Shown piece after piece: positions 2,761-22,780 of a DNA stretch of 64,000 bases. Below the pieces are notes generated by a model that was not told the DNA's origin, made no database searches, and worked only from the letters and a program-made list of their open reading frames with translations. The DNA is from an uncultured Pseudomonadales bacterium (GTDB lineage Bacteria > Patescibacteriota > Microgenomatia > UBA1400 > Chazhemtobacteraceae): positions 121,013-185,012 of the forward strand of contig CAYQZQ010000001.1 of NCBI GenBank assembly GCA_964422035.1. Reading direction: 5' to 3'. Numbering within the stretch: the stretch's first letter is position 1; each line of letters opens with the position of its first letter. The position numbers were made by a program, and so were the translations under genes.

Positions 2761-3285
2761 ATGTCAGGACATAGTAAGTGGTCGAAAATAAAAAGACAAA
2801 AAGGAGCAGAGGATAAGAAGCGATCTAAATTGTTCACAAAGATTGTTCATAAGATCGTGGTGGCTGTTAAAGATCACAATGATGGTGACCCAGATACTAA
2901 TGCTGATTTAAGGCAAGCAATAGATGAAGCTAAGGAGGCTAATATGCCCAAAGAAAACATAGAAAGGGCGATAGATCGGGCTTTAGGGCGTGGTGAGGAA
3001 GGTGGATTGCAAGAGGCTGTATATGAAGGTTACGGTCCAGGTGGTGTTGGTGTATTGGTTAAGGTTCTGACAGATAATAGAAATAGAACTTCCTCACAGA
3101 TTAAGACAATATTTGATAAAGCGGGAGGTAGTTTGGGGTCTCCGGGGTCTGTTGCTTATTTGCGTAAGATTGATCCTGTTCCAAAGATTGCTTTAGAGGG
3201 AAGTCAAAAAGAAGCGATGAAGAAGTTGATTAAAATTCTGGAAGATCACGAAGATATCGTTGATGTCTGGAGTAATTTAGAATAA
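2761..3285 (+). CDS. YebC/PmpR-family DNA-binding regulator, short form
   Basis: MSGHSKWSKIKRQKGAEDKKRSKLFTK N-terminus and YEGYGPGGVGVLVKVLTDNRNRT core. 174 aa versus about 240 aa usually. Confidence 0.8.
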   Translation: MSGHSKWSKIKRQKGAEDKKRSKLFTKIVHKIVVAVKDHNDGDPDTNADLRQAIDEAKEANMPKENIERAIDRALGRGEEGGLQEAVYEGYGPGGVGVLVKVLTDNRNRTSSQIKTIFDKAGGSLGSPGSVAYLRKIDPVPKIALEGSQKEAMKKLIKILEDHEDIVDVWSNLE

Positions 3286-3289
3286 ATGT

Positions 3290-4111
3290 ATGAGTAAACG
3301 GGCCAAGTTTATTATCGCTGCACTAATTTTGTCATTGGCTTTATGGGGAACGCGGCTGATTGTACCTGGACAAAGGATGCAAGCTGTGGTGGCCATTGTG
3401 GTGGCTTCATATTTGATATCAGCTTGGGTGTTGTTTGAGGATCTTAAGGGCGTTGAGTGGCTTACTGTGCTGATTCTACCGGTAATGTATACCTTGGGTG
3501 CTGGATTGTTCTCTTTATTTTTGCCCGAGTCGATACCAAGGATTTTCGGACAGAGACTGGAAGCTGATGTGAGTAGATTAATTGCTGGAATCATCAGAGG
3601 GGGTTTTTGGTTGTTGTTTGGTGTTGGTGCATATGGTTTGTATTTAACGGAAAACATTTTTTCGGTGGCGGCGATCCGAACGATTCAACTTTTGCGGGCA
3701 GCAAGATCGGTTGGTTTTTTGATTACTTTGGTAGTGGCGATGTTTTTGTTTCAAGCTTTGTTCTCTTTTAAATTACAGTTTTATTGGTTAGGTCTATTGG
3801 CTGGTATTTTGAGCTTTCCATTATTTTTACAAGGTGATTGGTCGATGCGGCTTAAGAGTGGTTTAGATAGGCGAGTGATTCTTTATAGTTTGGTGGGGGC
3901 AGTGATTGTAGCCCAGTTGGCGATGGTGTTATCTTTCTGGCCTGTGGATAGCCTTGTAGCAGCCTTGATGTTGGTAACTGTGATGTATGTAACTTTAGGT
4001 TTGTCTCAACAGAAGCTTATCGGTAGATTATTTAAAAAACAAATTAATGAATACGTGGCTGTGGCTCTGGCTGTACTGGTGGCTAGTTTTTATATAACTT
4101 CTTGGCGGTAA
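3290..4111 (+). CDS. polytopic integral membrane protein, function unknown
   Basis: Six to eight predicted hydrophobic helices across 273 aa. No catalytic motif recognised. Confidence 0.45.
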   Translation: MSKRAKFIIAALILSLALWGTRLIVPGQRMQAVVAIVVASYLISAWVLFEDLKGVEWLTVLILPVMYTLGAGLFSLFLPESIPRIFGQRLEADVSRLIAGIIRGGFWLLFGVGAYGLYLTENIFSVAAIRTIQLLRAARSVGFLITLVVAMFLFQALFSFKLQFYWLGLLAGILSFPLFLQGDWSMRLKSGLDRRVILYSLVGAVIVAQLAMVLSFWPVDSLVAALMLVTVMYVTLGLSQQKLIGRLFKKQINEYVAVALAVLVASFYITSWR

Positions 4112-5316
4112 AAAGAGTCGGATGATAATAGGGAAGAGGGGAGGCCTATAGTAGTAATAACCTATAATATATCCTATAACTATAGTTTTCACACTACATC
4201 CTATAATTTTCACGGAGTTCTTTCACTTAGCCTTGAAATGAAGTGAAAAGTTGTTCTTTAGAGGAGAGGTTTGGATGGGTGTAAGGTATATATTCGGGTA
4301 GGAGAGGCAGATCTGCCTTCCCTGCGGGAATTTTGCAGGCTGGCAATTGATGATATAGTCTGATGGGGTTTGTGGATAAGTCAAGGTAATAGAGGTTGGT
4401 ATGAAGATAAACCGGTTGAAAGGAATGGTAAATAGAAGAGGGGTGTTAGGATAAATATTTTATTAATTGTTTAGACGTATTTGGGACCGGTGCAGATACT
4501 CTTCCCTATTGTTGATTAATAGAGGAGATTCTAGAATGATTTCTATTAGGTCGTACAATATTACTTTTACGACGTATGTAAAAATTAAATAGTGGAGAAG
4601 AGTCGGTTTTCACTTCTCCTAATGATTTGAATCAAAACCCGAACAACAGTGTTTAAAAGTTGTGTACCTCTCTCCCCGATTAAATATGGCTATCTATGGT
4701 TTTTGTTCTCTAAATTCGGTTTTGAATATAAACCCGAAAAGTTTTTTAAATTTTTGTAGTTTTTTGAAAAAATGTATCTGAAAATAAGATCTATTGTAAA
4801 AACTGCCTTTTAAATGAGATGTCTATATACATGCATACCTTTCAGAAAGCCTTCTAGGGCTATTAGAGCGCTTCTTAAGTTCAAAAAAAAACGCAATTTT
4901 GAGGCTAGAAATACTTCAATAGACTAAAGTTTCGAGAAATTGTCGACAGATGTAAAGATATTTTTTTGCACTGGCCTATTTGTTTTTGTAAATTTACGTT
5001 TGGTGTTTAGTTTAAACAATTTTTATTATTTATTTTTAATTTGTTTATTAGATATTGTTTGTTATTTGTGTGTTAGTTATTTTTTTGCCGTGGATTGTTG
5101 ATGTTAATTTGTGTTTTTTTGTTTACGTGGTTTTAGGTAAAAATAATTTTTTGATCAGAGAATACTATCGGACTTTTGTAAGTAATATAAGCGATTTTTT
5201 AAGTGATGGGTTATATCCCCTCCCTCACTGGATGTATGTCAAAATATGACGTCGCACAATCTTGACTAGCTAATTATTTAATGGTTAAGTGAAAGTAGAG
5301 TAAATTAAATATATAT
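4112..5316. other. 1.2 kb AT-rich non-coding tract with hairpins, iteron-like CCTATAA repeats and one consensus DnaA box
   Basis: No ORF of 60 aa or more with plausible composition on either strand. tgtggataa (TTATCCACA) at 4371-4379. CCTATAA repeated three times between 4155 and 4210. Palindromes ggcagatctgcc and cctgcgggaattttgcagg. Confidence 0.5.
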
Positions 5317-6267
5317 ATGGTAGATAAGAAAAAAGAGGATTTACAGATTAAACGCTTGATAGAAAAGTACCTTGGTCATTTAGAAGTCGAAAAAAACTAT
5401 TCTAAGTACACGATAAGAAATTACAAACTGTATTTAAAGCGGTTTAGAAACTGGTTTGAGGAAAACTATGAGCAGGAATACATAAATAGGCTTAGCAGTG
5501 AGATAGTTCGTAAGTACCGTCTTTATTTATCTAGATTTGAAAATGACCGGGGTCAGAGATTGTCTAAAAAGACTCAGAGCTACTACATCATTGCCTTGAG
5601 GGCTTTTTTGAAATATCTGATTAAACAGGGTGTTAAGACTCTGGCTCCTGAGAAGATTGATTTGCCTAAAATTGAAGGCAGGCAGATTAAGTTTCTTAAT
5701 CGCAAACAGGTTGAGAGGCTTTTAAATCAGCCTAGTGTCTCAACAGAGATGGGACTGAGGGATAAAGCCATACTAGAGACATTGTTTAGTACAGGAATGC
5801 GTGTGTCTGAATTAGCTAAGCTTAGGATAGATGATCTTGATCTAAAAAGCAGAGAGTTTGGTATTCGAGGAAAAGGTAGGAAAGTTAGGGTAGTATTTCT
5901 GTCAGAGAGAGCAGCTAAATGGTTGAGAAGGTACTTGAGAGCAAGAGACGATCATTATAAACCGTTATGGATCAGGTATTCTGGAAAGAAGCCGGATCCT
6001 TCCACCTCTGGTGAGAGTATGAGACTGTCTGTTAGAAGTATTCAGAGAATGGTGGAGAAGTATCGTAAGAAGGCAAATTTGCCGATTAAGGTAAGTCCTC
6101 ATGTAATCAGACATTCATTTGCAACTAATTTACTCCAAAATGGGGCGGATCTAAGAAGTGTGCAGGAGATGTTGGGACATGAAAATGTATCAACGACTCA
6201 GATATATACACATGTAACTAATCCACAACTTAAAAAAGTGCATGACAAGTTTCACTCAAAAGAGTAG
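5317..6267 (+). CDS. tyrosine site-specific recombinase (XerC/XerD/integrase family)
   Basis: C-terminal RHSFATNLLQNGADLRSVQEMLGHENVSTTQIYTHV carries the catalytic R..H..Y signature. Confidence 0.85.
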   Translation: MVDKKKEDLQIKRLIEKYLGHLEVEKNYSKYTIRNYKLYLKRFRNWFEENYEQEYINRLSSEIVRKYRLYLSRFENDRGQRLSKKTQSYYIIALRAFLKYLIKQGVKTLAPEKIDLPKIEGRQIKFLNRKQVERLLNQPSVSTEMGLRDKAILETLFSTGMRVSELAKLRIDDLDLKSREFGIRGKGRKVRVVFLSERAAKWLRRYLRARDDHYKPLWIRYSGKKPDPSTSGESMRLSVRSIQRMVEKYRKKANLPIKVSPHVIRHSFATNLLQNGADLRSVQEMLGHENVSTTQIYTHVTNPQLKKVHDKFHSKE

Positions 6268-6281
6268 TTAGATCCCCTAGC

Positions 6282-8906
6282 CTATTTGTGTTCGTCGATT
6301 CTGGTAACGGCGGTAACTTTATCCGATTTTTTAAGTCTCATCAAGATCACACCTTGAGTTGGCCGTTTTAATTCAGGAATATTTTTTAGAGGTAGCTTGA
6401 TGGCTTGGGCACTCTTAGTGCTTAAAATGATGAATTCTGTATTATGGGATACTTTTTCTGCACCTGCAATCTCGCCTGTTTTTTTGCTAATATTGGCTAC
6501 TTTTACCCCCTGCCCTCCCCTATTCTGGGTTGGGTATTGTTTTAGTGGAGTTCGTTTACCTAAGCCGTTTTCTGTTACAATTAGTAAGTGACGGAAAAAC
6601 TTGCGACGTTTATCATCAGGTTTTGGTGGTTTAGCATTGAAGGTTTCTAGGGCGAGGACGTAGTCGCCTTTTTTGAGATTAATACCTTTGACACCCATGG
6701 TGTCACGACCGGTATCACGAACATCTTTTTCTTCAAAGCGAATTGATTTGCCTTTTTTGGTGACTAGAAGGATATGATCTTTGCCGGAGGTCTTTTTGAC
6801 TTGAATTAATTCGTCGCCTTTTTTGAGGTTGATGGCGATAAGGCCGTTTCGTTTGATGTTTTCATATTCTTTTATCTGGGTTCTTTTGACCATTCCTTGT
6901 TTGGTAGCAAATAAGAAGTAGTCTTCACCAATTTTGTCTAGTGTTTTTGGTACTGCCATGATGGTCTGGACTTTTTCTTCTGGGGTAATCTCTATTAAAT
7001 TAATTATGGCTTGTCCCTTGGCTTTACGAGTCCCTTCTGGTATATCCCAAACTCTGATTTGATAGACCTGGCCTTGGTCTGTGAAGATTAACAGATGGTC
7101 ATGAGTGTTGGCAGAGAGAATGATGTTTAACTCATCTGCCTCTCTTTTGGTCATTCCAGAGACACCTTTTCCTCCTCTGCGCTGGCTTCTGAAAGTACCC
7201 GTTGACATGCGTTTGATGTATCCGGTTTTGGTTAGGGTGACGATACAGTCTTCGCTGGGGATTAAGTCTTCTTGTTGGAATTCTCCGATTGGATTGAGAT
7301 GGACTTTGGTTTTTCTGTCGTCTCCATATTTTTTAACGACTTCTTTAAGTTCTTTTTGAATGACTTTTAGAATCTTTTTGGGGTTGGTAATTATAGAGAG
7401 AAGATCTTCAATCTGACTCATCAATTCGTCATACTCATCTTTGACTTTTTGTCTTTCAAGAGCAGCTAGTCTGCGAAGTTGCATGCTTAGAATAGCCTGG
7501 GCCTGTTTTTCTGAAAATTGATATTTTTTCATTAGATTATCTTGAGCGTCGTTAGAGCTATCGCTTTTTTTGATTAACTCGATGATTTCATCAATGTGGT
7601 CTAGGGCTTTTAGTAGTCCTTCAAGAATGTGGGCTCTGGCGCGAGCTGACTTAAGGTCGTGCTGACTTCTTTTTACGATGACTAGTTGTCTGTGAATTAC
7701 GTATTCATTTAAGATTTGTTTGAGGTTCATGATATGAGGATGAAGGTCTGAAGAGAGCGCAACCATGTTGGCTGGGAATGAGGTTTGTAATTTTGATTGT
7801 TTGAATAAATTATTGAGGACTTTTTTGGGGATAGCGTTTCTTTTTAGTTCGATGGAGATGCTTAACCCTTGCCTGTCTGATTCATCGATGATGTCTGAGA
7901 TACCGTCAAGCTTGTCTTTTTTGACAAGATCGGCAATTTTGGAAATTAATTTAGCTTTATTTACCTGGTATGGTAGTTGTGTGACCTTGATCTCTGCTTT
8001 CCCGTGGCTTATCTCTTTAATGCCAGTGATAGCTCGGATAGTTATCTGGCCTTTTCCTGTGGCATATACTTGTCGGATGTCTTCTTGGTTGTATATTTGA
8101 CCTCCTGTTGGGAAGTCTGGACCTTTGATGTGTTTGAGAAGATCATCTAAACCGGCGGGAGATTCAAAGTTGCCGATTAGTAGTTGTGGATCATCAGTTT
8201 CAGGGTTTTCAAGTTTTTCTTTTTCTTCGTCAGTGATGGGAGATTCTCCTTGGTCAATTAGCTCGTTAATGGCGCCGACTACTTCTACTAGATTGTGAGG
8301 AGGAATCTTGGTTGCCATTCCAACAGCGATGCCGTCGGCACCCATTAAGAGAAGATTTGGAAGTAAGGCTGGAAGAACGTCTGGTTCTTGGAGTGATGCA
8401 TCAAAGTTGTCGGTGAATTTAACGGTTTCTTTGTCGATATCTTTAAGTAGCTCTTGAGAGATGTTCTCCATTCTGGCTTCTGTGTAACGCATTTGAGCAG
8501 CTGGGTCTCCATCGACTGATCCAAAGTTACCTTGACCATCAATTAATGGGTAGCGCATGGAGAAATCTTGAGCAAGTCGAACTAGAGCATCGTATACTGC
8601 TGTATCACCATGTGGGTGGAATTTACCTAGAACATCTCCGACGATACGAGCGGATTTTTTGTAGGGACTACTATGAGTAATGCCAGCTTCATGCATGGCG
8701 TAAAGAATGCGTCTGTGAACTGGTTTAAGCCCATCGCGAACATCTGGCAAAGCACGGGAGACAATAACACTCATGGCATAGTCTACATATGCTTTTTGGA
8801 CTTCTTCGACGATGCTGACTTTTTTAACTAAACCAAAATCAGTCTGTTTAGTTTCGTTAAGCCCGTCTTCTATTTTCTCTGTGGTTAGTTCTGGTTCTTT
8901 AGCCAT
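6282..8906 (-). CDS. gyrA: DNA gyrase subunit A
   Basis: [28 protein letters not shown] active-site region. 874 aa with C-terminal beta-pinwheel repeats. Confidence 0.95.
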
Positions 8907-12177: not shown

Positions 12178-13959
12178 ATGCCTGCCAATCAACAAGCAAG
12201 TACCGGTAATGCTGGAGTGGCTGATATTCTATTTGATGAAGGTCAGTTAACTGAAGAACAAAGAGACAAAGTTAAGTTGGAAGCTGTCAATCAGGGGAAA
12301 AGCGAGGTTGAGTTAATTTTGGAGCATAATTATGCTGGCAAGCAGAATGTGGTAAAAGCTAAAGCGCAAAAAATGGGGGTAGGTTTTGTGGATGTGTCAT
12401 CAGTTGGTATTGCGCCTGAGGCGGTGGGAATGATACCTGAATCGGTGGCAAAAAGATATCAGGTTTTGCCATTTGCCATTGATAATCAGGCAGGAGTTTT
12501 GTCTTTGGCAATTGCTAACCCGAATGATTTGGAGACGATTGATTTTATTCAATCAAAGTCAAATATGAAGGTGAAGCCTTATATGGCTGTAAAAGAAGAT
12601 TTAAAGCAAGCTATTGATAGAAGGTATAGTGAAAGTCTTTCAGGTGAGGTCAGCGAAGCTTTGGAAGAAGGCGGAGTTGTTGATCGGGGTGTGAAAACAG
12701 TTGATTCGGAGAGTTTGGGTGATGTAATAAAAGAGGCGCCGATTGCTAAGATTGTTAGCACGATTTTAGAGTTTGCTATTAAGGCTAGAGCTTCAGATGT
12801 ACATATTGAGCCTCATGAAACTAAAACGAGAATTCGATATAGGATCGATGGTATTTTGAGAGAGAAGTTGGTCTTACCCAAGTCAGTACATGAAGCGGTG
12901 ATAAGTAGGATTAAGATTTTGTCTGATATGAAGATTGATGAAAAAAGAGTGCCTCAGGATGGACGTTTTAATTTTGTAATGGGAGAGCATGAGGTTGATT
13001 TGAGGGTGAGTTCGATGCCAACTGTAAATGGTGAGAAAATTGTAATGAGGTTGTTGGAAAAGTCAGGAAGAGCGATGAGTTTGCCTGAGTTGGGGTTAAG
13101 AGGTAAGGCATTGAAAGACTTGAGAAACGCTATTCAGTATCCTCATGGTGTTGTGCTGGTAACTGGTCCTACGGGATCTGGTAAAACGACTACTTTGTAT
13201 TCGGCTTTGTCTATTTTGAATACTTCTAGGGTTAATATTATGACTTTGGAGGACCCGGTTGAGTATCAGATTTCAGGAGTGAACCAGGTACAGGTAAATC
13301 CCCAAGCCGGACTAACTTTTGCTTCCGGGCTGCGTAGCTTTTTGCGTCAAGACCCTAACATCATAATGGTCGGTGAGATTCGAGACGAAGAAACGGCCGG
13401 TTTGGCTATTCAAGCAGCTTTGACTGGTCACTTGGTTTTATCTACTTTGCATACTAATAGTGCTGCTGGTGCGTTGCCGCGTTTGTTGGATATGAAGGCT
13501 GAGCCATATCTTTTGGCTTCTTCTATATTGGCTGTAGTGGCTCAAAGAGTGGTAAGAAAAGTCTGTCCGGTTTGTAAAACTTCGTATGTACCTGATCAAG
13601 AGATAATTAGTGATATGAAAGAGATTCTAGGTCCTTTGTATGAAGCTTGGAGAAAAACACACTCTGAGGAAGTACAAAAAGCGCAAGAACAAAATGGGGA
13701 TATTTTATTGTATAAAGGGGGAACGCAAGACTGCGTTGAGTGTGGTGGGACGGGATATAAAGGAAGGGTGGGTATTTTTGAGGTAATGTTGATATCAGAT
13801 CAGATAAGTAAAATGTTGCTGGAGAGATCTTCATCAGGCGATATACAAAAACAAGCTGTGAAAGAAGGCATGGTGTTGATGGACCAAGATGGTTATCTGA
13901 AGGCTTTAGATGGTATGACGACTTTAGAAGAGGTGTTAAGAGTTGCTAAACAACAGTAA
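12178..13959 (+). CDS. pilB: type IV pilus assembly ATPase PilB (GspE family)
   Basis: N-terminal T2SSE_N-like domain, Walker A LVTGPTGSGKTTTLY, and tetracysteine CPVC...CVECGG motif. Confidence 0.9.
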   Translation: MPANQQASTGNAGVADILFDEGQLTEEQRDKVKLEAVNQGKSEVELILEHNYAGKQNVVKAKAQKMGVGFVDVSSVGIAPEAVGMIPESVAKRYQVLPFAIDNQAGVLSLAIANPNDLETIDFIQSKSNMKVKPYMAVKEDLKQAIDRRYSESLSGEVSEALEEGGVVDRGVKTVDSESLGDVIKEAPIAKIVSTILEFAIKARASDVHIEPHETKTRIRYRIDGILREKLVLPKSVHEAVISRIKILSDMKIDEKRVPQDGRFNFVMGEHEVDLRVSSMPTVNGEKIVMRLLEKSGRAMSLPELGLRGKALKDLRNAIQYPHGVVLVTGPTGSGKTTTLYSALSILNTSRVNIMTLEDPVEYQISGVNQVQVNPQAGLTFASGLRSFLRQDPNIIMVGEIRDEETAGLAIQAALTGHLVLSTLHTNSAAGALPRLLDMKAEPYLLASSILAVVAQRVVRKVCPVCKTSYVPDQEIISDMKEILGPLYEAWRKTHSEEVQKAQEQNGDILLYKGGTQDCVECGGTGYKGRVGIFEVMLISDQISKMLLERSSSGDIQKQAVKEGMVLMDQDGYLKALDGMTTLEEVLRVAKQQ

Positions 13960-13977
13960 TTAACTATATTTAAGATA

Positions 13978-15027
13978 ATGACTATACAAGAATTAATGCA
14001 GACTGCTTTTGAAAAGGGTGCTTCGGATCTGCATATTATTGCTGGTTCTCCGCCTACTTTAAGGATTGATGGGAAATTAGCTCCATTGACTGATCAGGAG
14101 TTGACGGGAGATCAGACTCAAGAGTTGATTTTGCAGCTTATAAATGAACAGCAAAAAAACAAGTTGTGGGAGTCAAGAGAGCTTGATTTTTCAACTGAGC
14201 TTGAAGGTGTGGGAAGATTTAGGGCTAATGCCTATTGGCAAAAGAAAAGCTTAGGAATAGCTTTGCGCACGATAAGTGACAAAATTCCTACTATTGACGA
14301 GTTGAGACTGCCTAAGATTTGCTATCAGTTGTCACAATTAAGGCAAGGGTTTGTTTTGGTAACTGGTCCTACAGGTCATGGTAAAAGTTCTACATTGGCT
14401 GCAATTATTGGAGAGATAAATCGCAATCGTTTTGAGCATATTGTTACTATTGAAGACCCAATTGAGTTTGTATATGAAGCTGATAAGTCAATTATTTCTC
14501 AAAGAGAGATGAGTGAAGATACCTTAAGTTGGCCAGGTGCCCTGAAAAGTACCTTGCGTGAAGATCCTGATGTTGTACTGGTGGGAGAGATGCGAGACCC
14601 TGAGACGATGCAGGCGGCATTGACGGTAGCTGAGACCGGCCACTTGGTTTTTGCCACTTTACATACTAATAGTGCAGCTCAGACGGTTGACCGTATTGTT
14701 GATAGTTTCCCTGAAGAGCAGCAAGGGCAAGTTAAGATTCAGTTGGCTGCAACCCTTGAAGCAGTTGTCTCACAGAGGTTGATTCCGGCTATTGAAGGTG
14801 GTCGAGTACCTGCTGCTGAGATTTTAGTTGGTACTCCAGCGGTAAGAAATAATATCAGAGAAGGTAAAACGCATCAGTTAGATAGTGTGATTCAAACTTC
14901 TGCTGAGATGGGTATGGCCAGCCTTGAGGCATCACTAGCTTATTGGGTAAAGCAAAATGTAGTTAGTCTGGAGACAGCCAGAGGATTTGCTGTAAGACCT
15001 GGAGATTTAGATAGATTAGTAAGGTAA
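13978..15027 (+). CDS. pilT: twitching-motility retraction ATPase PilT
   Basis: ASDLHI N-terminus, Walker A LVTGPTGHGKSSTL, and AIRNNIREGK PilT signature. Confidence 0.9.
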   Translation: MTIQELMQTAFEKGASDLHIIAGSPPTLRIDGKLAPLTDQELTGDQTQELILQLINEQQKNKLWESRELDFSTELEGVGRFRANAYWQKKSLGIALRTISDKIPTIDELRLPKICYQLSQLRQGFVLVTGPTGHGKSSTLAAIIGEINRNRFEHIVTIEDPIEFVYEADKSIISQREMSEDTLSWPGALKSTLREDPDVVLVGEMRDPETMQAALTVAETGHLVFATLHTNSAAQTVDRIVDSFPEEQQGQVKIQLAATLEAVVSQRLIPAIEGGRVPAAEILVGTPAVRNNIREGKTHQLDSVIQTSAEMGMASLEASLAYWVKQNVVSLETARGFAVRPGDLDRLVR

Positions 15028-15028
15028 T

Positions 15029-16249
15029 ATGGCAACACAACAAAAAAAACAGTATGAGTATAAAGCTAGAAAAGAAGATGGGGCGGTGGCAACAGGAAGT
15101 GTTGAGGCTGTTAGTGAAGAGCAAGCGGTGAGGATGATTAGAGCTCGTGGGTGGCTTTTAGTTTCAATTAAAGAAAAGAAGGAGGGTGATCTTTCTCAGT
15201 TATTGCAAAAGTTTGAGAAAGTTAAAAGTGATGATGTGGTGGGTTTTACTCGCCAGTTGTCAACTATGGTTGGTGCAGGCTTGCCTTTAACTGAAGCCTT
15301 AAGCATTTTGGAGGTGCAGAGCAGTCAGGCGATGAGTAGATTGGTGTCTGAGATAAGGCAGGAGGTTGAGGCAGGAAATTCCTTGTCAGATGCTCTTGAA
15401 GAAGCTGGCAGCGATGTTTTTTCCAAGGTGTATATAGCTCTTGTAAGGGCAGGTGAATCAGCTGGTGTTTTAGATGAAATATTGATGAGGTTGGCTAATA
15501 ATATGGAGAAACAGAGAGAGTTTAAACAAAATATTAAAGGAGCAATGATCTATCCGATTATTGTTTTGGTTGGTATGGTTGTTGTTGGTATTATAATGAT
15601 GATTTTTGTGGTTCCTAAAATGACAGCTATGTACAAGGATTTTGGAGCTACACTCCCCTTACCTACTCAGATCTTGATTGGACTGAGTGATTTTCTAGTA
15701 AATTTTTGGTACATACTTTTTATATTGGTTGGAGGGGTTGCTTATTTTGTGTATAAGTGGTCAAAGACAGAAGTGGGGGCTTTATTAATTGAGAAAGCAA
15801 TTTTTGATATTCCAATAATTGGTCCTTTACGTAAAAAGGTCATTTTGGCAGAGTTTGCTAGAACAATGAGTTTATTAATCGGGGCTGGAATTTCTATTTT
15901 GGAGGCATTGCGTATTGTTTCTGATGCTGTTGGTAGCAAGATTATTAAAATGAGACTTGAAGAGGCTGCTAGTGAAGTAGAAAAAGGAAGGCCTTTGGGA
16001 ATTGTGTTGGCGAAATTTGAGGAGTTTCCACCGATTTTTCCTCAAATGTTGTCTGTGGGAGAACAAACTGGTCAGGTGTCGGAGATTCTAACTAGGATTG
16101 CTGATTATTTTGAGCAGGAGAGTGAGGTGGGAGTGAATGCGCTAGCGACTGCAATTGAGCCTATTATTATTGTAATCATGGGAATTGGTGTCTTGTTTTT
16201 AGTAATGGCTGTTATCATGCCTATCTATAACTTGACCAGTCAGTTTTAA
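15029..16249 (+). CDS. pilC: type IV pilus platform protein PilC (GspF family)
   Basis: Two GspF repeats, each with TM segments. 406 aa. Confidence 0.9.
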   Translation: MATQQKKQYEYKARKEDGAVATGSVEAVSEEQAVRMIRARGWLLVSIKEKKEGDLSQLLQKFEKVKSDDVVGFTRQLSTMVGAGLPLTEALSILEVQSSQAMSRLVSEIRQEVEAGNSLSDALEEAGSDVFSKVYIALVRAGESAGVLDEILMRLANNMEKQREFKQNIKGAMIYPIIVLVGMVVVGIIMMIFVVPKMTAMYKDFGATLPLPTQILIGLSDFLVNFWYILFILVGGVAYFVYKWSKTEVGALLIEKAIFDIPIIGPLRKKVILAEFARTMSLLIGAGISILEALRIVSDAVGSKIIKMRLEEAASEVEKGRPLGIVLAKFEEFPPIFPQMLSVGEQTGQVSEILTRIADYFEQESEVGVNALATAIEPIIIVIMGIGVLFLVMAVIMPIYNLTSQF

Positions 16250-16318
16250 GGACTTGACAAGGGCACTTAGGTGCATCATAGTTAAGATATAATAAATATT
16301 TAGTTGTACCTGCCTCAA

Positions 16319-16870
16319 ATGAAAAATAAAAAAGGTTTTACGTTAATTGAGCTTTTAATTGTTATTGGAATTTTAGGAATTTTAGCAACAGGACTTTTAG
16401 CTGCTGTTGATCCATTTGAACAACTTAAGAAGGCTAGAGATACAAATACCAGGAATGCAGCAGTTGAGATGCATAATGGTTTTATTAGGTATTACGCAAC
16501 ACACGGTGCTTTGCCTTGGGATGACAGCGGTGCAGGTACTGATTGTACTGACAATTTGGCTGATATTAGAAGTACGTCCACTGAGACTTCTGTGTCTGAT
16601 ATTTCAGACTGTGTGCAGGAGTTGATAGACGATGGTGAACTCAAAGAAGATTTTATTGGAGCCTTAGGAGACGATGCGGATGATATTATTATTACCTCAA
16701 CAAGTGGTGTTGCTGTCTCTGTTTGTTTTTCACCTGAGAGTAAGGCAATCTTTAGTGATGTAGCTACAAAATATAATGTATATGGAGAAGATGTAAGTGC
16801 AACAACGTGTGAGAGTACTGCTAAGGATTCATTAACTCCAGGAACAACTTGCTATTGGTGTGCTAAGTAA
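16319..16870 (+). CDS. type IV (major?) pilin with class III signal peptide
   Basis: MKNKKGFTLIELLIVIGILGILA prepilin leader with cleavage after G and conserved E5. C-terminal Cys pair. Start moved to the Met internal to the track ORF. Confidence 0.8.
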   Translation: MKNKKGFTLIELLIVIGILGILATGLLAAVDPFEQLKKARDTNTRNAAVEMHNGFIRYYATHGALPWDDSGAGTDCTDNLADIRSTSTETSVSDISDCVQELIDDGELKEDFIGALGDDADDIIITSTSGVAVSVCFSPESKAIFSDVATKYNVYGEDVSATTCESTAKDSLTPGTTCYWCAK

Positions 16871-16946
16871 AGAGATTTAAATTAAAAAGAAGAAACAGTC
16901 AGTATTTAACTGGCTGTTTTTTTATGATTGATGATAAGATGGCTTT

Positions 16947-17747
16947 ATGATGATAGGATTATGGTTGTTTATCATTGGAGTAGTAATAGGAAGTTTTTTA
17001 AACGTTGTAGTTTATAGAACTGTGTATGACAAGTCGCCTCTTGAGGGAAGATCAAAGTGTCCTGAGTGTGAAGAAAAAATATCATGGAAGCACAACATTC
17101 CCCTACTCTCTTATGTATTGCTTAAAGGCAGATGTGCTCACTGTAACTCAAAGATTTCTTTACAGTATCCGGTGGTTGAGTTATTGTCTGGTCTGCTATT
17201 TGTATGGTGGTATGTAGTTGGGTGGAGCTTTTTTCAGTTAGTCGAGACTCCTCTAATTTGGATACAGCCGATTTTTTGGCTAGGTGTAGGGATAGCTTTG
17301 CTTTTGGTGACTGTGTTTGATTTTAAGTATGGGATTATTCCAAACGGCTTAAATGTTGCTTTGTTTGTATGGGTTATGGTGTATCGGTTAGGGTTGGTTG
17401 GTATGGGAAGAATGCAGACAAGAGATTTTCTACTGGCTTTGTTATCCAGCGGTGTATTAGCAGCTTTTTTCTACTTTTTGTATAGGATTACTAAAAGACA
17501 GGGTTTTGGGTTTGGTGATGTTAAGCTGGCTCCTAGTTTGGGATTGATCTTGGGATGGCCCAAGATACTAGTGGGTGTGATGGCGTCTTTTGTAATAGGT
17601 GGAGTTGTGGCTGTTGTTTTAATGATTTTAGGCAAAAAGAAGATGAAGGAGACAATCGTGTTTGGTCCCTTTCTAACTTTGGGAACCTTGATTTCTTTAT
17701 GGTGGGGTGATTATATTTGGAGTTGGTACATGACTATGCTTAAATGA
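16947..17747 (+). CDS. pilD: prepilin peptidase PilD (A24 family)
   Basis: CPECEEKI...CAHCNSKIS zinc motif and FGFGDVKL active-site region. Polytopic. Confidence 0.9.
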   Translation: MMIGLWLFIIGVVIGSFLNVVVYRTVYDKSPLEGRSKCPECEEKISWKHNIPLLSYVLLKGRCAHCNSKISLQYPVVELLSGLLFVWWYVVGWSFFQLVETPLIWIQPIFWLGVGIALLLVTVFDFKYGIIPNGLNVALFVWVMVYRLGLVGMGRMQTRDFLLALLSSGVLAAFFYFLYRITKRQGFGFGDVKLAPSLGLILGWPKILVGVMASFVIGGVVAVVLMILGKKKMKETIVFGPFLTLGTLISLWWGDYIWSWYMTMLK

Positions 17748-18280
17748 TAATAAGAATGAGGGACAAACAAGTTAGAGGTTTTACATTAATGGAGATACTT
17801 ATTGCAATGGCAATTATAGGTATTTTGGCTAGTGTGGGATTTGGTTCATACATTAGAAGCTTAAAAAAAGGTCGAGATGCACAACGAAAATCTGATCTGA
17901 ATCAGGTTCAAAGTGCACTGGAGGCTTATATGAGCGATTTTCAGGTGTATCCGGGTTGTAATTCGGAAGGTAAGATTGTTGGTTGTAGTGATGGAGATGC
18001 TGATTGTGATTGGGGTGATTCATTTGTTAGAAATGTGGGAGATACCACGAAAACATATATGAGTAGGTTGCCTGAGGATCCTGTGTCTGGAGCAGATTAT
18101 GTTTATGTTTCGGATGGAGATAAGTATCAATTGTTTTCTGTTTTGGAAAATGATCAGGATCCTGATTATGTGGATAGCTATACGACTGTATGTGGCGAAG
18201 AGGCTTGTAAGTATGGAGTGCCTAGTCCAAACAATAACATGAGTGCTGAAATGACAATTGCAGACGATTGTTCGTTGTAA
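17744..18280 (+). CDS. pilin-like protein with prepilin leader
   Basis: RGFTLMEILIAMAIIGILA prepilin leader. Confidence 0.75.
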   Translation: MIIRMRDKQVRGFTLMEILIAMAIIGILASVGFGSYIRSLKKGRDAQRKSDLNQVQSALEAYMSDFQVYPGCNSEGKIVGCSDGDADCDWGDSFVRNVGDTTKTYMSRLPEDPVSGADYVYVSDGDKYQLFSVLENDQDPDYVDSYTTVCGEEACKYGVPSPNNNMSAEMTIADDCSL

Positions 18281-18309
18281 TTATCAAATTGATGGGATAG
18301 TATTAAATT

Positions 18310-18753
18310 ATGATTAGTCAGGAAAAGAAGGGGTTTACATTAATTGAGCTTTTAGTGGTAGTGGCGATAATTGGAACATTGACGGGTTTGGCTACTGTTA
18401 ATTTTCAGGATGCAAGAGAGCGAGCAAGAGACGCTCAGAGAAAAGGAGACGTGAAGCAGATTCAGAAGGCTATGGAGCTTTATAAGAATGATCAGTCAGC
18501 TCAACACTACCCGGATGATAATGATCCTGTCGAGACTTGGAGAGAAAAGTTGGAATCAGGAGGATATATGAATAATGTACCCAATGACCCCAAGGCTAGG
18601 GCAGCAGAAAGTAGTTGGCCTGATTACGAATATGATCGCAGTAGTGTTTTGGAGTACACCTTGGTGGCTTGTTTGGAGAATCCTGCAGATCTAGATATAG
18701 ATGAGACAAATACTTGCGATAGTGGCTATAGTTATACATTAACCCAACCTTAA
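18310..18753 (+). CDS. pilin/pseudopilin-like protein
   Basis: KGFTLIELLVVVAIIGTL leader followed by GspG-like QRKGDVKQI. Confidence 0.75.
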   Translation: MISQEKKGFTLIELLVVVAIIGTLTGLATVNFQDARERARDAQRKGDVKQIQKAMELYKNDQSAQHYPDDNDPVETWREKLESGGYMNNVPNDPKARAAESSWPDYEYDRSSVLEYTLVACLENPADLDIDETNTCDSGYSYTLTQP

Positions 18754-18755
18754 AA

Positions 18756-19181
18756 ATGGAAAACAAACAAAGAGGATTTACATTACTTGAGCTTTTAGTA
18801 GTTATTGGAATTATTGGAATATTAGTAGGTATCGGGACTATTTCGTACCAGTCTGCACAAGAAAAAAGTCGTGACTCTAGACGGCGTGGAGATTTAAAGG
18901 CGATTTCAAATGCTTTAGAGCAGTACTATGCTGAAAATACTGGCAGTTATCCTCAAGATATAGCTTGCACCGGATATGTTGATTATTTATCTGGTCCCGA
19001 ACCTACTGATCCAGTGACTGGTGATACTTATCTTGATGATGGCGACTGCGTTGTTGATGGAAGCAGTTATTGTGTGTGCGTAGAACTTGAAGGAACTGGG
19101 ACTGGGAATGCTTATGATGCAAGTTGTACCTGGACGGGCTCGGGAGACAAAGATTATTTTTGTGTTGAAAACCTACAATGA
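18756..19181 (+). CDS. pilin/pseudopilin-like protein
   Basis: RGFTLLELLVVIGIIGIL leader, RRRGDLKAI, and several Cys. Confidence 0.75.
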   Translation: MENKQRGFTLLELLVVIGIIGILVGIGTISYQSAQEKSRDSRRRGDLKAISNALEQYYAENTGSYPQDIACTGYVDYLSGPEPTDPVTGDTYLDDGDCVVDGSSYCVCVELEGTGTGNAYDASCTWTGSGDKDYFCVENLQ

Positions 19182-19579
19182 TAAATAATCGTAAAGGTTT
19201 TACGTTCATCGAGCTTTTGGTGGTGGTAACTATAATTGGGGTGTTGGCGGCTGTGGGTATGGTTAGTTATACGAGTACGAACAAAAGTGCTCGAGACTCA
19301 AAGAGGCTGGCTGATCTGGAACAAATAAGGACAGCATTGGAGATTTGTAGATCTGAGGCCGGTAGTTATCCAGCTGATATTTCAAGCGGAGTAGTTTGTG
19401 GTGGTGACTCTTATTTGTCTCCCCTACCCAGTGATCCCTGGGATAGTAAGACAGAGTATGGTTATAGTTATACTCAAAATTCTGAAACAAGTTATGATAT
19501 TTGTGCAACTTTGGAAAATGATGATAAATGCACAGGAACAATAAATGGAGATGGAGAATGTTGCCTAAGCAATCCTTAA
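19178..19579 (+). CDS. pilin/pseudopilin-like protein
   Basis: KGFTFIELLVVVTIIGVLA leader. Confidence 0.75.
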   Translation: MINNRKGFTFIELLVVVTIIGVLAAVGMVSYTSTNKSARDSKRLADLEQIRTALEICRSEAGSYPADISSGVVCGGDSYLSPLPSDPWDSKTEYGYSYTQNSETSYDICATLENDDKCTGTINGDGECCLSNP

Positions 19580-20037
19580 AGACCAAGGCTTTTACTTTAA
19601 TTGAAATAATGGTGGTTATATCGATAATTGCTCTGTTGAGCGCAGGATCTTTGGTGGCATTTAATAACTTAAGAGAGAAAAGGTTGGTTAGAGGTGATGC
19701 AGATTTGGTAATACAGGAGTTGAAGAAGGCAAGAACAAAGGCAAGATCGGGTGAAAAACCTGAAGCTTGTCTTTCAGATTTAGAAGGATACGAAGTAGAA
19801 GTGTCTGGACCCTCTGTGATTTTAAGAGTAAGTTGCGGAAATACGATAGAGCATAATACAGTACAGATGCAAAACAGTTCAATTGTAGGCACTGAAGAGG
19901 TTGAGTTCGATGCGTTGGGAGGAGCCACTCCAGCAACTATTTATGTATGTGGAAGCAATAGTCTATATGGATATGCAATTGAGGTGACGGGCTCAGGCTT
20001 GATTGAGTCACCTGTAGAATACAGTGGTTGTAGTTAA
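19558..20037 (+). CDS. pilin-like protein
   Basis: KAFTLIEIMVVISIIALLSA leader. Start assigned to the internal Met. Overlaps the previous gene by 22 nt. Confidence 0.65.
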   Translation: MLPKQSLKTKAFTLIEIMVVISIIALLSAGSLVAFNNLREKRLVRGDADLVIQELKKARTKARSGEKPEACLSDLEGYEVEVSGPSVILRVSCGNTIEHNTVQMQNSSIVGTEEVEFDALGGATPATIYVCGSNSLYGYAIEVTGSGLIESPVEYSGCS

Positions 20038-20052
20038 AACTTTTAAGATATT

Positions 20053-20463
20053 ATGAAGTTATTTAAAGACATTAACGGCCAGACTTTGATAGAAGTGATA
20101 GTAGCTGTGGCGGTGATAAGTTTGGTTTTAACAGGGATTGTCATAGCGGTAACTAGTGGATTGAAGACTTCAAGAATATCTAGAGAAAGATTTGAGGCAA
20201 GGAGGATTGTTGATTCTGAGTTGGAAGACATACGAAGTGAAAGAAATAACGATCCTGGTAGTTTTTTTGTAAGTGAAAATGCTGGAGATACCATTGAGGT
20301 AGGTCCTGATGTGGTAGAAGGCAACTCGACTAGTTATGAGAAAACAGTGACTTATGATTATGCTGCTGATGGCAGAGAGGTTGAAGTGACGGTTGCAGTG
20401 GAATGGGGGGGTGAAGAATCATATTCTGTAAGCCAGACAACGATATTAACTCTTTGGCAGTAG
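20053..20463 (+). CDS. minor-pilin-like protein with atypical leader (GQTLIEV)
   Basis: NGQTLIEVIVAVAVISLVL resembles PilV/GspI-type minor pilin leaders. Confidence 0.55.
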   Translation: MKLFKDINGQTLIEVIVAVAVISLVLTGIVIAVTSGLKTSRISRERFEARRIVDSELEDIRSERNNDPGSFFVSENAGDTIEVGPDVVEGNSTSYEKTVTYDYAADGREVEVTVAVEWGGEESYSVSQTTILTLWQ

Positions 20464-20487
20464 GTTAATTATTGATATGATGAGTTT

Positions 20488-20961
20488 ATGAAGGGGTTTA
20501 CATTAATGGAATTGGTAGTGGTGGTTGCAGTTATGGCGGTGGCTTTAGCAGCGACAGCTGGTTTATTTACTCAATCTTTTAGGAGTGGTAGTAAGACTGA
20601 GAAAATAGTTTTGGTAGAAGAGAACATGAGACAATCAATGGATATTATGGAGAGAATGATTAGAAATGCTTCTAAAATAGAAAGTGTTGGTGGAGGTGTG
20701 TGCCCAGGGTCAGGGCAGAGCTTGACGATATTAAATACTGATAATGATACGACTATTTTTTCTTTAAGTGATGGGCAGATTGCTTCTAACGGGGCTGCCT
20801 TAAGTGGAGATAAGGTTGTGGTAGAGAGTTTGCAGTTTCAGTGTATTAGGAATAGCGGGGCGCCTGATAAAGTTGAGATTAATACGCAGGCGAGAGCAGA
20901 TGTGGATGAGGAGGGTGATATAGTAGAATATACTAGAAATGTTGATTTAAGAAACTATTAA
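20488..20961 (+). CDS. pilin-like protein
   Basis: MKGFTLMELVVVVAVMAV leader. Confidence 0.7.
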   Translation: MKGFTLMELVVVVAVMAVALAATAGLFTQSFRSGSKTEKIVLVEENMRQSMDIMERMIRNASKIESVGGGVCPGSGQSLTILNTDNDTTIFSLSDGQIASNGAALSGDKVVVESLQFQCIRNSGAPDKVEINTQARADVDEEGDIVEYTRNVDLRNY

Positions 20962-20970
20962 AGATTAAAT

Positions 20971-21762
20971 GTGTATATGGGTATAAAAAGAGATGAGTCA
21001 GGGCAGGTAGCAGTCATTGTGGCTTTGAGTATGGCAGTTATGGCCACTATTACTCTATCTGTGGTGAGCAGATCAGTAGTAGATTTAAGGTTAACTGATA
21101 TTGAGGAGGAGTCCGCGTCAGCATTGAAAGCAGCTGAGGCTGGTCTTGAAAAAGCTCTGAAAGGTCTTGAGTCTGATGATTTTAGTAGTAGCGATTTTCC
21201 AGGTGCGTCTTATCAGGTTGATGTAGAAGACAAAGGTGAGACAGGTTTTGTTACCGCGTCGGCGATAAGTAGAGGCGAGGTTGTTGAGGTTGAGATGGGA
21301 GGGGCTAATCCGCCATCTAGTATAAGAGTTTATTGGGGAGATAGTAATGATGACAACCAGTCCCCTACTGGCGCAGTTGAGATTTTAAAATACAGCAAGG
21401 TTTCTGATAGTGATTATAGAGTTGAGAGATTTGTTTATGATCCAGATGCTACTAGGAGGTCGTCTAATAATTTTTCTGCTCCACTTTCAATCAATCCGGG
21501 AGGTTTTCAGAGTGTTGATTTTACTGCTAGGTCAGAGATTCTTACAGATGCTGATGATGTTTTGATTAGGATAAGAACTTTTTATAATCTGGCAACTTTG
21601 GGGGTTGAGCCTTTGGGAGGGGTGCTACCTCAGCAGATATATGAAGCGGTGGCAACAGGTGAGGCGGCAGATGATGTGCAAAGGAAAGTCAGGGCGGTAA
21701 GAGGTAGTCCTCAATTGCCGGCAGCTTTTGATGCGGCTTTATATTCAGGAGGTAGTTTGTAG
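20971..21762 (+). CDS. PilX_N-like pilus-associated protein
   Basis: ESGQVAVIVALSMAVMATITLSV hydrophobic N-terminus typical of PilX N-terminal domains. Lies inside the pilus locus. Confidence 0.45.
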   Translation: MYMGIKRDESGQVAVIVALSMAVMATITLSVVSRSVVDLRLTDIEEESASALKAAEAGLEKALKGLESDDFSSSDFPGASYQVDVEDKGETGFVTASAISRGEVVEVEMGGANPPSSIRVYWGDSNDDNQSPTGAVEILKYSKVSDSDYRVERFVYDPDATRRSSNNFSAPLSINPGGFQSVDFTARSEILTDADDVLIRIRTFYNLATLGVEPLGGVLPQQIYEAVATGEAADDVQRKVRAVRGSPQLPAAFDAALYSGGSL

Positions 21763-21785
21763 TTGTTTAATGTTATGATAATGTT

Positions 21786-22778
21786 ATGTCTGCCCAGCTA
21801 GGAATCGATATTGGTACAGCAAATATAAAACTTGTTTCTCTAAGTGGTAACAAGATTAATGGTGCCCAAGTGATTAGTAACCCTTTGGGCAAGATTAAAC
21901 TGGAAACTGAATCTGAAGTTGTAAAGATGGTTGAGGAGATGAAGAAGTCCTTATTTTCTGAGATAAAATTGTCGGGACAAAGCACTGCTGTGGTGGTGCC
22001 TGAAAGTGTTGTGTATAGTCGAGTCATCAGCATGCCTGTGTTGACTGACGCGGAATTATCAAACGCTATAAAGTGGGAAGCGGAACAATATGTACCCCAA
22101 CCGTTGGAGGAAGTTGAGCTGTCATGGCAGGTTGTAGATAAGCCTCAAAAAACAGAAGGCAAGATGAAGGTATATTTAGTGGCGATTGATAAAAAGGTTG
22201 TAGGTGGTTTAATAAATATGTTTTCAAGATTAGGGTTGGAGCCGACTAGTATTAAGCCTGAGTTTGTTGCAGCCTCATCTTTAATTAGAAGTAAGGGAGA
22301 CGTGATGTTGTCTACCATGGGTGCAAGTACAGTTACAAGTGGTGTATTTAGGGATGGTAATTTGCTTTTCATATATCAATTTGGAAGTGGTGGAACAGCA
22401 ATGACAAGGGCAATATCTTCAGGTTTGCAGCTTAATACCTCTCAAGCTGAAGAGTACAAACGTTCATATGGTGTGAGAAAAGATGTTTTGGAGGGAAAGT
22501 TATATCAGGCAATGAGGCCCGTAACTGAGGGAGTTATATCGGAGCTTAAGAAGGTAGTTGGTTATTACAATCAAAATTTTGCAGATAAGGGCCAGTTGGT
22601 TAATCTTTCAATTTGTGGAGGTATGGCGCTAACACCGGGGATAGTGCAGTTGTTGGGCTCTGAGTTAAATGTTGAGACAGAGCTTTTAAGTAGTTTTGGT
22701 GATGTAGAGTTTGAGGTTCAAATAGATAACAGATTACGAGTAGTGTACGCTCCAGCAATTGGTGCTGTAAAAAGTTAA
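21786..22778 (+). CDS. pilM: type IV pilus assembly protein PilM (actin-like ATPase fold)
   Basis: LGIDIGTANIKLV N-terminus and ICGGMA motif. 330 aa. Confidence 0.85.
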   Translation: MSAQLGIDIGTANIKLVSLSGNKINGAQVISNPLGKIKLETESEVVKMVEEMKKSLFSEIKLSGQSTAVVVPESVVYSRVISMPVLTDAELSNAIKWEAEQYVPQPLEEVELSWQVVDKPQKTEGKMKVYLVAIDKKVVGGLINMFSRLGLEPTSIKPEFVAASSLIRSKGDVMLSTMGASTVTSGVFRDGNLLFIYQFGSGGTAMTRAISSGLQLNTSQAEEYKRSYGVRKDVLEGKLYQAMRPVTEGVISELKKVVGYYNQNFADKGQLVNLSICGGMALTPGIVQLLGSELNVETELLSSFGDVEFEVQIDNRLRVVYAPAIGAVKS

Positions 22779-22780
22779 AT

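Follow-up and report, generated by a model that had tools for sequence, protein, structure and literature searches.

The locus

We describe here a 1.2-kb non-coding tract, positions 4112-5316 of a 64,000-nucleotide stretch of DNA that we refer to as the window (contig CAYQZQ010000001.1, positions 121,013 to 185,012, of assembly GCA_964422035.1), from an uncultured bacterium of the Microgenomates (OP11), to which the window is assigned by its DUF5656 gene, by its gene content as a whole and by its nearest relatives in the databases. The tract contains a 28-bp inverted repeat, named H, that is probably the recombination site of the Xer-family recombinase encoded by the adjacent gene, here called xer. 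It is flanked by the stop codon of a DUF5656 gene (3290-4111, plus strand), which encodes a membrane protein of 273 amino acids, and by the start codon of xer (5317-6267, plus strand), and beyond xer are gyrA (6282-8906) and the genes for an inorganic pyrophosphatase, gyrB and holB, all on the minus strand. The features on which the argument mainly rests are the following.

4112-5316: the whole non-coding tract; an orthologous gap is present in 55 of the 55 relatives that have both flanking genes
4548-4575: site H, AGGTCGTACAA-TATTAC-TTTTACGACGT, an 11-6-11 inverted repeat of 28 bp with a 24-nt core at 4550-4573; proposed dif-type Xer core
5249-5267, plus strand: H2, ACGTCGCACAAT, a left-arm copy of H followed by a -35-like TTGACT, 57-67 nt upstream of the xer start
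5317-6267, plus strand: Xer-family tyrosine recombinase of 316 amino acids, with Phage_integrase and SAM-like N domains; the presumed enzyme for H

At 1205 nt the tract is the largest non-coding gap of the window; in a greedy gene map, by which about 93% of the sequence is coding, the median gap is 29 nt. The second-largest gap, of 645 nt, is an artefact from overlapping gatA and gatB open reading frames (ORFs), and the remaining apparent gaps hold small genes. Within the tract the ORFs are of 41-64 amino acids and three of the four have a TTG start. No counterpart of the three plus-strand ORFs (41, 53 and 64 amino acids) is conserved in relatives; the fourth, of 53 amino acids, is on the minus strand (4223-4384), and the conservation check covered the plus-strand ORFs. 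The GC content is 35-48% across 4100-4500 and 20-34% across 4700-5200. Given the size of the gap, the lack of a conserved plus-strand ORF and the GC profile, we take the gene-free tract to be real. A first-pass annotation, made by reading the sequence, had reported 1.2 kb without a credible ORF, long in comparison with other spacers and richer in GC in its 5' part, and on these points it was right. The palindromes that it quoted are also there (ggcagatctgcc at 4306-4317, cctgc...gcagg at 4320-4340 and ggagaag...cttctcc at 4594-4620). The AT-rich 3' part that it compared to an unwinding element has the composition described, yet is the least conserved portion of the tract and in relatives has often been swapped for inserted genes.

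Site H, the half-site H2 and the recombinase

Site H was found in 75 of 81 loci, with the consensus ACGTCGCACAA-TAATAC-TTTTGCGACGT, and the full site occurs once in the 64-kb window. The 11-6-11 arrangement is that of dif (PMC5357621). Conservation is at least 90% in the outer arm segments GTCG/CGAC and in the inner segments CAAT/CTTTT, with variation mainly in the central 4 nt, and conserved arms about a variable centre are the pattern of a recombinase core site. At arm positions 5 and 20 the pair is C-G in 48 cases, T-A in 10, C.A in 9 and T.G in 8, with no strand-specific wobble. As both types of wobble are equally common, duplex DNA is favoured over an RNA hairpin of either strand.

Wherever both are found H sits upstream of xer, at a distance of 370-4314 nt, which in the window is about 740 nt. 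There is a second association with xer in the form of H2, where the single-arm copy is at 5249-5260 and includes the left-arm core GTCGCACAAT at 5251-5260. In 39 of 55 loci a comparable half-site is present no more than 260 nt upstream of xer, as against 2 of 1100 control windows.

With regard to the recombinase, this is the single Xer gene within the window. The protein scores 258 bits with the NCBIfam model for XerC, 255 with that for XerD and 227 with that for XerA, and only the XerA cutoff (220) is passed. The XerS model gives 127 bits against a cutoff of 267. In four other loci (L015, L045, L071 and L046) xer is matched by tblastn in two pieces 0.01-1.2 kb apart, suggesting a frameshift, or the interruption of the gene by an intein, intron or mobile element.

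Three other identities for H were considered and rejected. A leader peptide reading across H (ATG ATT TCT..., with GGAGA upstream) is not supported, as the residue changes follow the inverted repeat and not the protein. Comparison by eye with an NrdR box shows similarity in the left half and none in the right half. The loop CAATATTAC recalls the nonanucleotide nick site of geminiviruses and other circular Rep-encoding single-stranded (CRESS) DNA viruses, but there is no linked HUH-type Rep gene in the chromosomes.

Site H in other lineages

The pattern GTCGYRCAAT-N4-CTTTYRCGAC was applied to IMG/VR and metagenome contigs. It is present in 34 IMG/VR contigs of about 21 unrelated groups, where by our estimate about 2 would be expected by chance, and in at least 120 metagenome contigs, with never two matches in one stretch among those listed. 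The counts in the remainder of this paragraph are for the metagenome matches listed. The Microgenomates locus accounts for 36 of them, with xer beside H in 24, and the other 84 have no xer or DUF5656 gene nearby. At least 1.5 kb of sequence is available on each side of H for 23 of these 84. The genes are convergent on H in 13 of the 23 and divergent in none, the GC skew is higher to the left than to the right in 19 (Wilcoxon p = 6e-5), and there is a clear switch from plus to minus skew in 8 and the reverse in none. At these other chromosomal loci H thus carries a replication-terminus signature, which is where dif belongs. In the tailed-phage contigs, too, H is between convergent genes. When two phage contigs (L083 and L084) were searched with a nhmmer profile of the host tract, homology did not extend beyond H.

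A set of low-GC human-associated contigs bears on the activity of the site. In these an element of 5.1-5.9 kb, with a G2P-type rolling-circle Rep gene, a Zot-like ATPase gene and no integrase gene, lies between host genes, namely a DUF3048 gene to one side and murG with an ftsQ-like gene to the other. The element is bounded by a full H and by a hybrid site, which consists of GTCGCACAATATATC (the left arm and centre) followed by an unrelated or degenerate right arm (for example in L107, L109, L113, L115, L117, L119, L204 and L171). In two such contigs an identity of 93% ends exactly after GTCGCACAATATATC and returns at the second site, while the intervening 5.5 kb are 72-77% alike, and three types of left flank and five types of right flank are joined at GTCGCACAATATATC in twelve combinations. 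Mobile elements that exploit the host Xer system (IMEX), such as CTXphi, VGJphi and TLCphi, leave such footprints at dif (PMC5357621), and judging from the sequences the arrangement between hybrid site and full H is a footprint of this kind. Since IMG/VR contigs carry host flanks around inovirus-like prophages, several of the "viral" contigs are in part host DNA. Our guess is that some of the hosts are Saccharibacteria, in which oral prophages have been reported (PMC7739484).

The conserved platform around H

The gene order yebC, DUF5656 gene, gap, xer and gyrA (minus strand) is kept in about 80 species-level genomes of Microgenomates, a group within the candidate phyla radiation (CPR), including metagenome-assembled genomes of Collier-, Beckwith-, Chisholm-, Woese- and Shapirobacteria. 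The orthologous gap is of 644-4709 nt in the 55 loci with both flanking genes. It contains a series of short motifs with constant order and similar spacing across relatives, separated by sequence that drifts. Those of the window, with the less conserved segments, are as follows.

4127-4144, plus strand: G-rich block AATAGGGAAGAGGGGAGG (clade consensus AGGGGAGAG), complementary to 4499-4510
4161-4206, plus strand: three CCTATAA boxes, at 4161-4167, 4173-4179 and 4200-4206; 2-5 copies in relatives, often with a 14-nt period
4186-4214, plus strand: two TTTTCAC(G) boxes, at 4186-4192 and 4207-4214; a direct pair, 19-22 nt apart in relatives
4215-4345 (approximate borders): window-specific insertion of about 130 nt, which holds the palindromes of 4306-4340 and is absent from relatives
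4351-4359, plus strand: TGATATAGT block (clade consensus TGATAnnGnnTGATATAGTT)
4371-4379, minus strand: perfect DnaA box TTATCCACA; most relatives have a perfect box at the equivalent place
4499-4510, plus strand: CTCTTCCCTATT block (clade consensus CTTCCCTATTT), an inverted copy of the G-rich block
4626-4643, plus strand: P1 box TTTGAATCAAAACCCGAA
4721-4738, plus strand: P2 box TTTGAATATAAACCCGAA, which repeats P1 in direct orientation 95 nt downstream (in relatives, about 99 nt)
4840-4871, plus strand: Q block TTTCAGAAAGCCTTCTAGGGCTATTAGAGCGC (clade consensus TTCCAGAAGCCGTTTTAGGGGCATT)
4880-5200: AT-rich (20-34% GC), poorly conserved spacer with internal direct repeats of about 120-130 nt; relatives have extra genes inserted here

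In relatives the series begins with the G-rich block AGGGGAGAG, the 2-5 CCTATAA boxes, two TTTTCACG boxes and a perfect DnaA box, and continues with TGATA...TGATATAGTT, then CTTCCCTATTT (the inverted G block), and then the palindrome H. After H there are two TGWAKATAAWCCCGAA boxes about 99 nt apart and the block TTCCAGAAGCCGTTTTAGGGGCATT. The P1 and P2 pair of the window represents two AAACCCGAA boxes conserved on the xer side of H. Close to xer the relatives have more copies of CTCCCCTAT, which is the reverse complement of the G-rich block, a further DnaA box (in Beckwithbacteria, two) and the single-arm copy of H. Tandem direct repeats, and freely varying spacers of conserved length, look like arrays of protein-binding sites and not like a folded RNA. 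The best explanation is that the tract is a nucleoprotein platform, acting at the DNA level, that is conserved throughout the Microgenomates, and the suggestion of a protein-binding platform in the first-pass annotation fits these arrays well. The TTTTCACG repeats have some resemblance by eye to a parS half-site (TGTTTCACG), but they are not palindromic and we do not regard them as such.

Perfect DnaA boxes are at a density of 0.80 per kb in the gap and 0.011 per kb in the flanks, a 72-fold enrichment over the 55 loci, with 1-3 boxes per locus. In the window the box precedes H by about 170 nt, and in relatives it is about 225 nt upstream. The association with H extends to other lineages: among the matches listed, five loci of one other lineage (L140, L163, L166, L179 and L210) have a perfect DnaA box 224-264 nt downstream of H, and in two further loci a box is 35 nt upstream. 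In phage contig L106 (8500-8620, minus strand) two perfect boxes (TTATCCACA, 20 nt apart) abut H and there is a CCTATAA box just downstream; this intergenic region, which is beside a primase-helicase gene, may be a phage origin or an att region. As the other chromosomal H junctions are terminus-like, the DnaA box is not an origin marker there, and DnaA may be an architectural cofactor at H.

There are some further observations on these loci. In the five loci of the other lineage just mentioned H is next to ftsQ-murG in about 1 kb of non-coding DNA, with a GC content of 39-51%, and AGATGAWT follows H after about 20 nt. DnaA-box-like 9-mers (at most 1 mismatch) occur in the window at twice the frequency in shuffled sequence and 36 of 42 are on one strand, a bias that is probably a by-product of skew. 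In the AT-rich spacer of the window, between 4956 and 5151, three short segments (19-24 nt, 75-84% identical) are repeated 119-129 nt downstream, which suggests an old tandem duplication of about 125 nt. The closest relatives with long contigs (L085-L087, 10822-13003; DUF5656 proteins 71% identical) have a gap of 2.18 kb, of which the distal 1.2 kb reads as an uncalled or decayed minus-strand gene for a membrane protein.

Neighbouring genes

The YebC/TACO1-family protein encoded at 2761-3285 has only 174 amino acids, with a complete N domain and a match to the profile for the second and third domains at positions 2-52 of 160. The short form is also present in relatives (L085). A cluster at 12178-24108 resembles those for type IV pili or competence, with two T2SSE ATPases, a T2SSF platform protein, a prepilin, an A24 prepilin peptidase and PilM, together with several small pilin-like ORFs. 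On the same contig, about 7 kb upstream of the window (L082, 2687-6754), the replicative helicase DnaB is a protein of 1355 amino acids with two insertions of the Intein_splicing and LAGLIDADG type, and the closest relatives have an orthologue of 439 amino acids with no intein (L085, 2715-4034).

Position with respect to origin and terminus

The GC skew of the plus strand is unusually strong, with an average of about +0.25, and gives no sign of a switch at the tract. It is between +0.06 and +0.57 in every 1-kb bin from -9.6 kb (the window being extended with L082) to +12.4 kb, the minus-strand gyrA and gyrB included. Further out, to 64 kb, nearly all of the 1-kb bins are positive, the exceptions being small dips at 35-36 kb and 40-42 kb, a long way from the tract. 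The highest values, up to +0.57, are in plus-strand genes, and skew is positive over most minus-strand genes as well. In the 36 orthologous loci with flanks of sufficient length the mean skew is +0.26 for the left flank, +0.12 for xer and +0.10 for the gyrA side, and in none of the 36 is the left flank negative.

With regard to dnaA, a tblastn search with a DnaA query gave no match in the window or in loci L001-L119, which include all of the orthologous loci, and Pfam annotation of the window found no DnaA. Nor is there a cluster of DnaA boxes of the kind expected for oriC, the tract having one perfect box and no box with 1 mismatch, and the relatives 1-3 boxes. The AT-rich part of the tract is not conserved. 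With no skew switch and no dnaA nearby, the tract is not a bidirectional origin or a terminus. The first-pass annotation had put forward a replication origin and named a skew switch and dnaA elsewhere, with no skew inflection at the tract, as the evidence that would speak against it; there is no skew inflection here and dnaA is not nearby, which contradicts the proposal. A literature search on CPR origins gave nothing relevant.

Is the tract a structured RNA?

The first-pass annotation had also suggested an unannotated non-coding RNA, on the view that the 5' part is full of stable stem-loops, and neither the RNA nor the stability of the stem-loops could be substantiated. At gathering thresholds the matches to Rfam 15 in the window are five tRNAs only, none of them in the tract, and 14 orthologous loci gave no match. 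A scan of 3900-5500 against Rfam at E<=10 also found nothing and ARAGORN found no tmRNA. Folding energies are no better than those of dinucleotide shuffles: for 4112-4720 z is +0.71 on the plus strand and -1.61 on the minus strand, for 4120-4520 it is -0.65, and for three spacers of 30 relatives, on both strands, the mean z is between -0.3 and +0.3. RNAalifold on 38 aligned loci gave a long-range helix between the G blocks and the H hairpin, plus a few short weak helices. The duplex energy for the 5' and 3' blocks of the same locus does not differ from that for mismatched pairs (-26.2 and -25.8 kcal/mol respectively), in a comparison too noisy to settle the point.

Interpretation

In our view the tract is a conserved DNA-level platform for recombination and regulation, comprising a dif-like site and xer, and is not an origin and not a structured RNA. 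We think it probable, with some reservations, that within this platform H is the dif-type site of the adjacent Xer, H2 is autoregulatory and the flanking motifs are accessory. H is best read as a dif-type Xer site because the same core recurs at terminus-like junctions, in about 21 phage lineages and at the borders of integrase-less prophages. The suggestion in the first-pass annotation of an att or dif region serviced by the adjacent recombinase is thus supported, by way of the 28-bp site at 4548-4575 and not by the features that it cited. As to mechanism, Xer would bind H as a pair of monomers, exchange strands and so resolve chromosome dimers, and integrase-less mobile elements would use the same kind of site. 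H2, at the xer promoter, would probably allow Xer to regulate its own gene. The GGGGAG/CTTCCC inverted blocks, the CCTATAA, TTTTCACG and AAACCCGAA boxes and the DnaA box would bind accessory or regulatory proteins, DnaA among them, and the AT-rich 3' third would serve as a variable spacer and as the site of the xer promoter. The conservation of the tract, the layout of H and its linkage to xer, the presence of the core in phages and at terminus-like junctions, the footprints in other genomes and the lack of a skew switch here are observations. The action of this particular Xer on H, the operator function of H2 and the roles of the flanking motifs are what we infer.

There are several points that weigh against this interpretation, of which position is the chief one. 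A classical dif site is at the GC-skew switch, while the sign change of skew that marks a terminus was not found at H in the window or in the 36 relatives. All of the recombination footprints at H come from other lineages, and at the Microgenomates locus itself no insertion flanked by duplicated H and no recombination footprint was found. Compensatory changes in the arms of H (GTCGTA/TACGAC and GTCGTG/CACGAC) would fit an RNA hairpin as well, the flanking motifs have no assigned binding proteins, and it is conceivable that Microgenomates genomes have a second copy of H located at the terminus. We know of no precedent for DnaA boxes beside a dif site. As to position, either dimer resolution at this locus is independent of the terminus, or this H is regulatory and a second copy is at the terminus. 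Resolution away from the terminus is reported for XerA, which does not need FtsK, and it applies to the plasmid sites cer and psi with their accessory sequences. The alternative is a regulatory H.

This alternative leads to an explanation in which H and H2 are operators controlling xer, and possibly gyrA, bound by Xer or another protein, with the working dif at the terminus elsewhere. The position of H away from the skew switch, the overlap of the half-site with the xer promoter region in 39 of 55 loci and the lack of insertions flanked by duplicated H at the Microgenomates locus would all be accounted for, and since in other lineages H is terminus-like and away from xer, a second copy is conceivable. 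However, a full 11-6-11 site 500-4300 nt from the promoter would be odd for an operator, crossover at the identical core is demonstrable in other genomes, and H occurs once in the 64-kb window with no double match per stretch in the metagenome loci listed. We give this explanation a small chance. We would put no higher the proposal that the dimer-resolution site of Microgenomates has moved off the terminus, as a self-contained dif module, not tied to position, that uses several hundred bp of accessory DNA and has DnaA and iteron-binding proteins as cofactors, and that would be a chromosomal analogue of cer and psi. The link that this would make between the replication initiator DnaA and Xer recombination draws support from the repeated association of DnaA boxes with one and the same core. 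One can also reverse the emphasis and treat the tract as a DnaA-binding locus, similar to datA or DARS or a cluster of boxes, that titrates or recycles DnaA and has the dif-like site as a mere neighbour. The 72-fold enrichment, the conserved positions of the 1-3 boxes over the 55 loci and the accompaniment of H by boxes in other lineages and one phage are in keeping with this, as is the mid-replichore placement, since E. coli DARS2 and the B. subtilis DnaA-box clusters are mid-replichore. But the window tract has a single box and none with 1 mismatch, the majority of the conserved motifs are not DnaA boxes, and the pairing of box and H across unrelated contexts suggests that the box serves H and not the reverse; we consider it an improbable explanation.

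A replication origin, be it oriC, a second origin or a unidirectional origin that coincides with the terminus, is less probable again. In its DnaA box, its short AT-rich repeats in tandem, its AT-rich stretch and its many repeated motifs with fixed spacing the tract has what one might look for in an origin, there are the two boxes abutting H beside the primase-helicase gene in L106, and in the 74 kb in view a unidirectional origin would account for both the absent skew switch and the presence of a dif-like site in the same place. Against this, skew runs without inversion from -9.6 kb to +64 kb and in the 36 relatives, the genes to the left run into the tract, dnaA and dnaN are not within reach in any locus, and in other lineages there is a DnaA box about 230 nt from H even though H is at convergent plus-to-minus junctions. 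Furthermore, 7 of 8 large contigs have the locus in forward orientation when it falls in the first half of the record and in reverse orientation when it falls in the second, which fits genomes of the ordinary two-replichore kind if the records begin near the origin. Least probable of all is a large structured non-coding RNA comprising the 5' 600 nt, closed by a helix between 4124-4138 and 4499-4513 and containing H as a hairpin. There is a long-range complementarity of 12-15 bp in the window, RNAalifold retains this helix and the H hairpin in 38 sequences with some apparent compensatory changes in both, and from a -35/-10-like pair at 4102-4129 transcription would begin at the G-rich block. 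However, the tract and the 14 orthologous loci are negative in Rfam, folding is at the level of shuffled sequence in the window and in the spacers of 30 relatives, there are no further conserved helices and the duplex test is negative. The tandem direct repeats suit DNA-binding proteins, and H has both types of wobble and is a DNA crossover point elsewhere.

Significance

CPR bacteria, or Patescibacteria, are a large share of bacterial diversity and mostly uncultured, and what is said of their chromosome maintenance is inferred from gene lists. Our literature search found no report of the H sequence in such a context, or of dif or Xer in Patescibacteria. If our interpretation is correct, GTCGCACAAT-N4-CTTTTRCGAC, as a motif of 24-28 bp, is the dif site of CPR bacteria, and would serve in CPR metagenome bins as a simple marker both of termini and of prophages that exploit Xer. 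It would also explain how integrase-less filamentous phages lysogenise such tiny genomes. In the Microgenomates we would have a dif-type site that is off the skew switch and inside a large conserved platform with DnaA boxes, which raises the question of dimer resolution under the control of accessory DNA and DnaA rather than of FtsK at the terminus. For annotation, we suggest that the combination of a DnaA box, AT-rich DNA and repeats is insufficient to call oriC in CPR bacteria.

Comparison with known systems

The tract shares with oriC, datA, DARS and the DnaA-box clusters of B. subtilis one or more perfect DnaA boxes, short tandem repeats, an AT-rich stretch and an intergenic position. It differs in having no skew switch, no linkage to dnaA and too few boxes (1 in the window and 1-3 in relatives).

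In the case of IMEX (CTXphi, VGJphi, TLCphi and the gonococcal island) the likeness is in the integrase-less, filamentous-phage-like elements and the tandem or recombined arrays at H, and the CTX and TLC arrays at dif1 show the same pattern (PMC5357621). The pattern is at homologous sites in other genomes and not at the window's own H.

A site beside the recombinase gene is described as a hallmark of the single-recombinase systems XerS/difSL, of streptococci and lactococci, and XerH/difH, of Helicobacter and Campylobacter (PMC5357621). The locus described here is similar in having one Xer gene linked to an inverted-repeat site, in the A/T-rich inner ends of the arms (CACAA-N6-TTTTG here and GAAAA...TTTTC in difSL and difH; PMC5357621) and in the exploitation of the site by mobile elements. 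However, the XerS and XerH modules are at the terminus with the site immediately adjacent to the gene, whereas here the module is off the skew switch, H is about 740 nt from xer, and H forms part of a conserved non-coding platform, at least 0.65 kb long, that has one or more DnaA boxes and repeat arrays. Also, the protein of 316 amino acids scores best with the XerC, XerD and XerA models and not with that for XerS.

Archaeal XerA is a single recombinase with a 28-bp site and is independent of FtsK (PMC5357621), and the protein encoded here passes the NCBIfam cutoff for XerA (227 against 220 bits). By analogy, independence of FtsK would remove the need for a location at the terminus. The host is however bacterial, and as far as we can judge the sequences of the arms are unrelated to those of the archaeal dif.

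The plasmid sites cer and psi are similar in overall plan, each being an Xer core flanked by a few hundred bp of conserved DNA, which at our locus has candidate sites for accessory proteins and could free resolution from dependence on chromosomal position. For cer and psi the accessory proteins are ArgR and PepA, and ArcA and PepA, respectively, and resolution relies on the accessory sequences. H differs in being chromosomal and in having conserved motifs on both sides of the core, and by the same analogy the candidate accessory proteins would be DnaA plus others.

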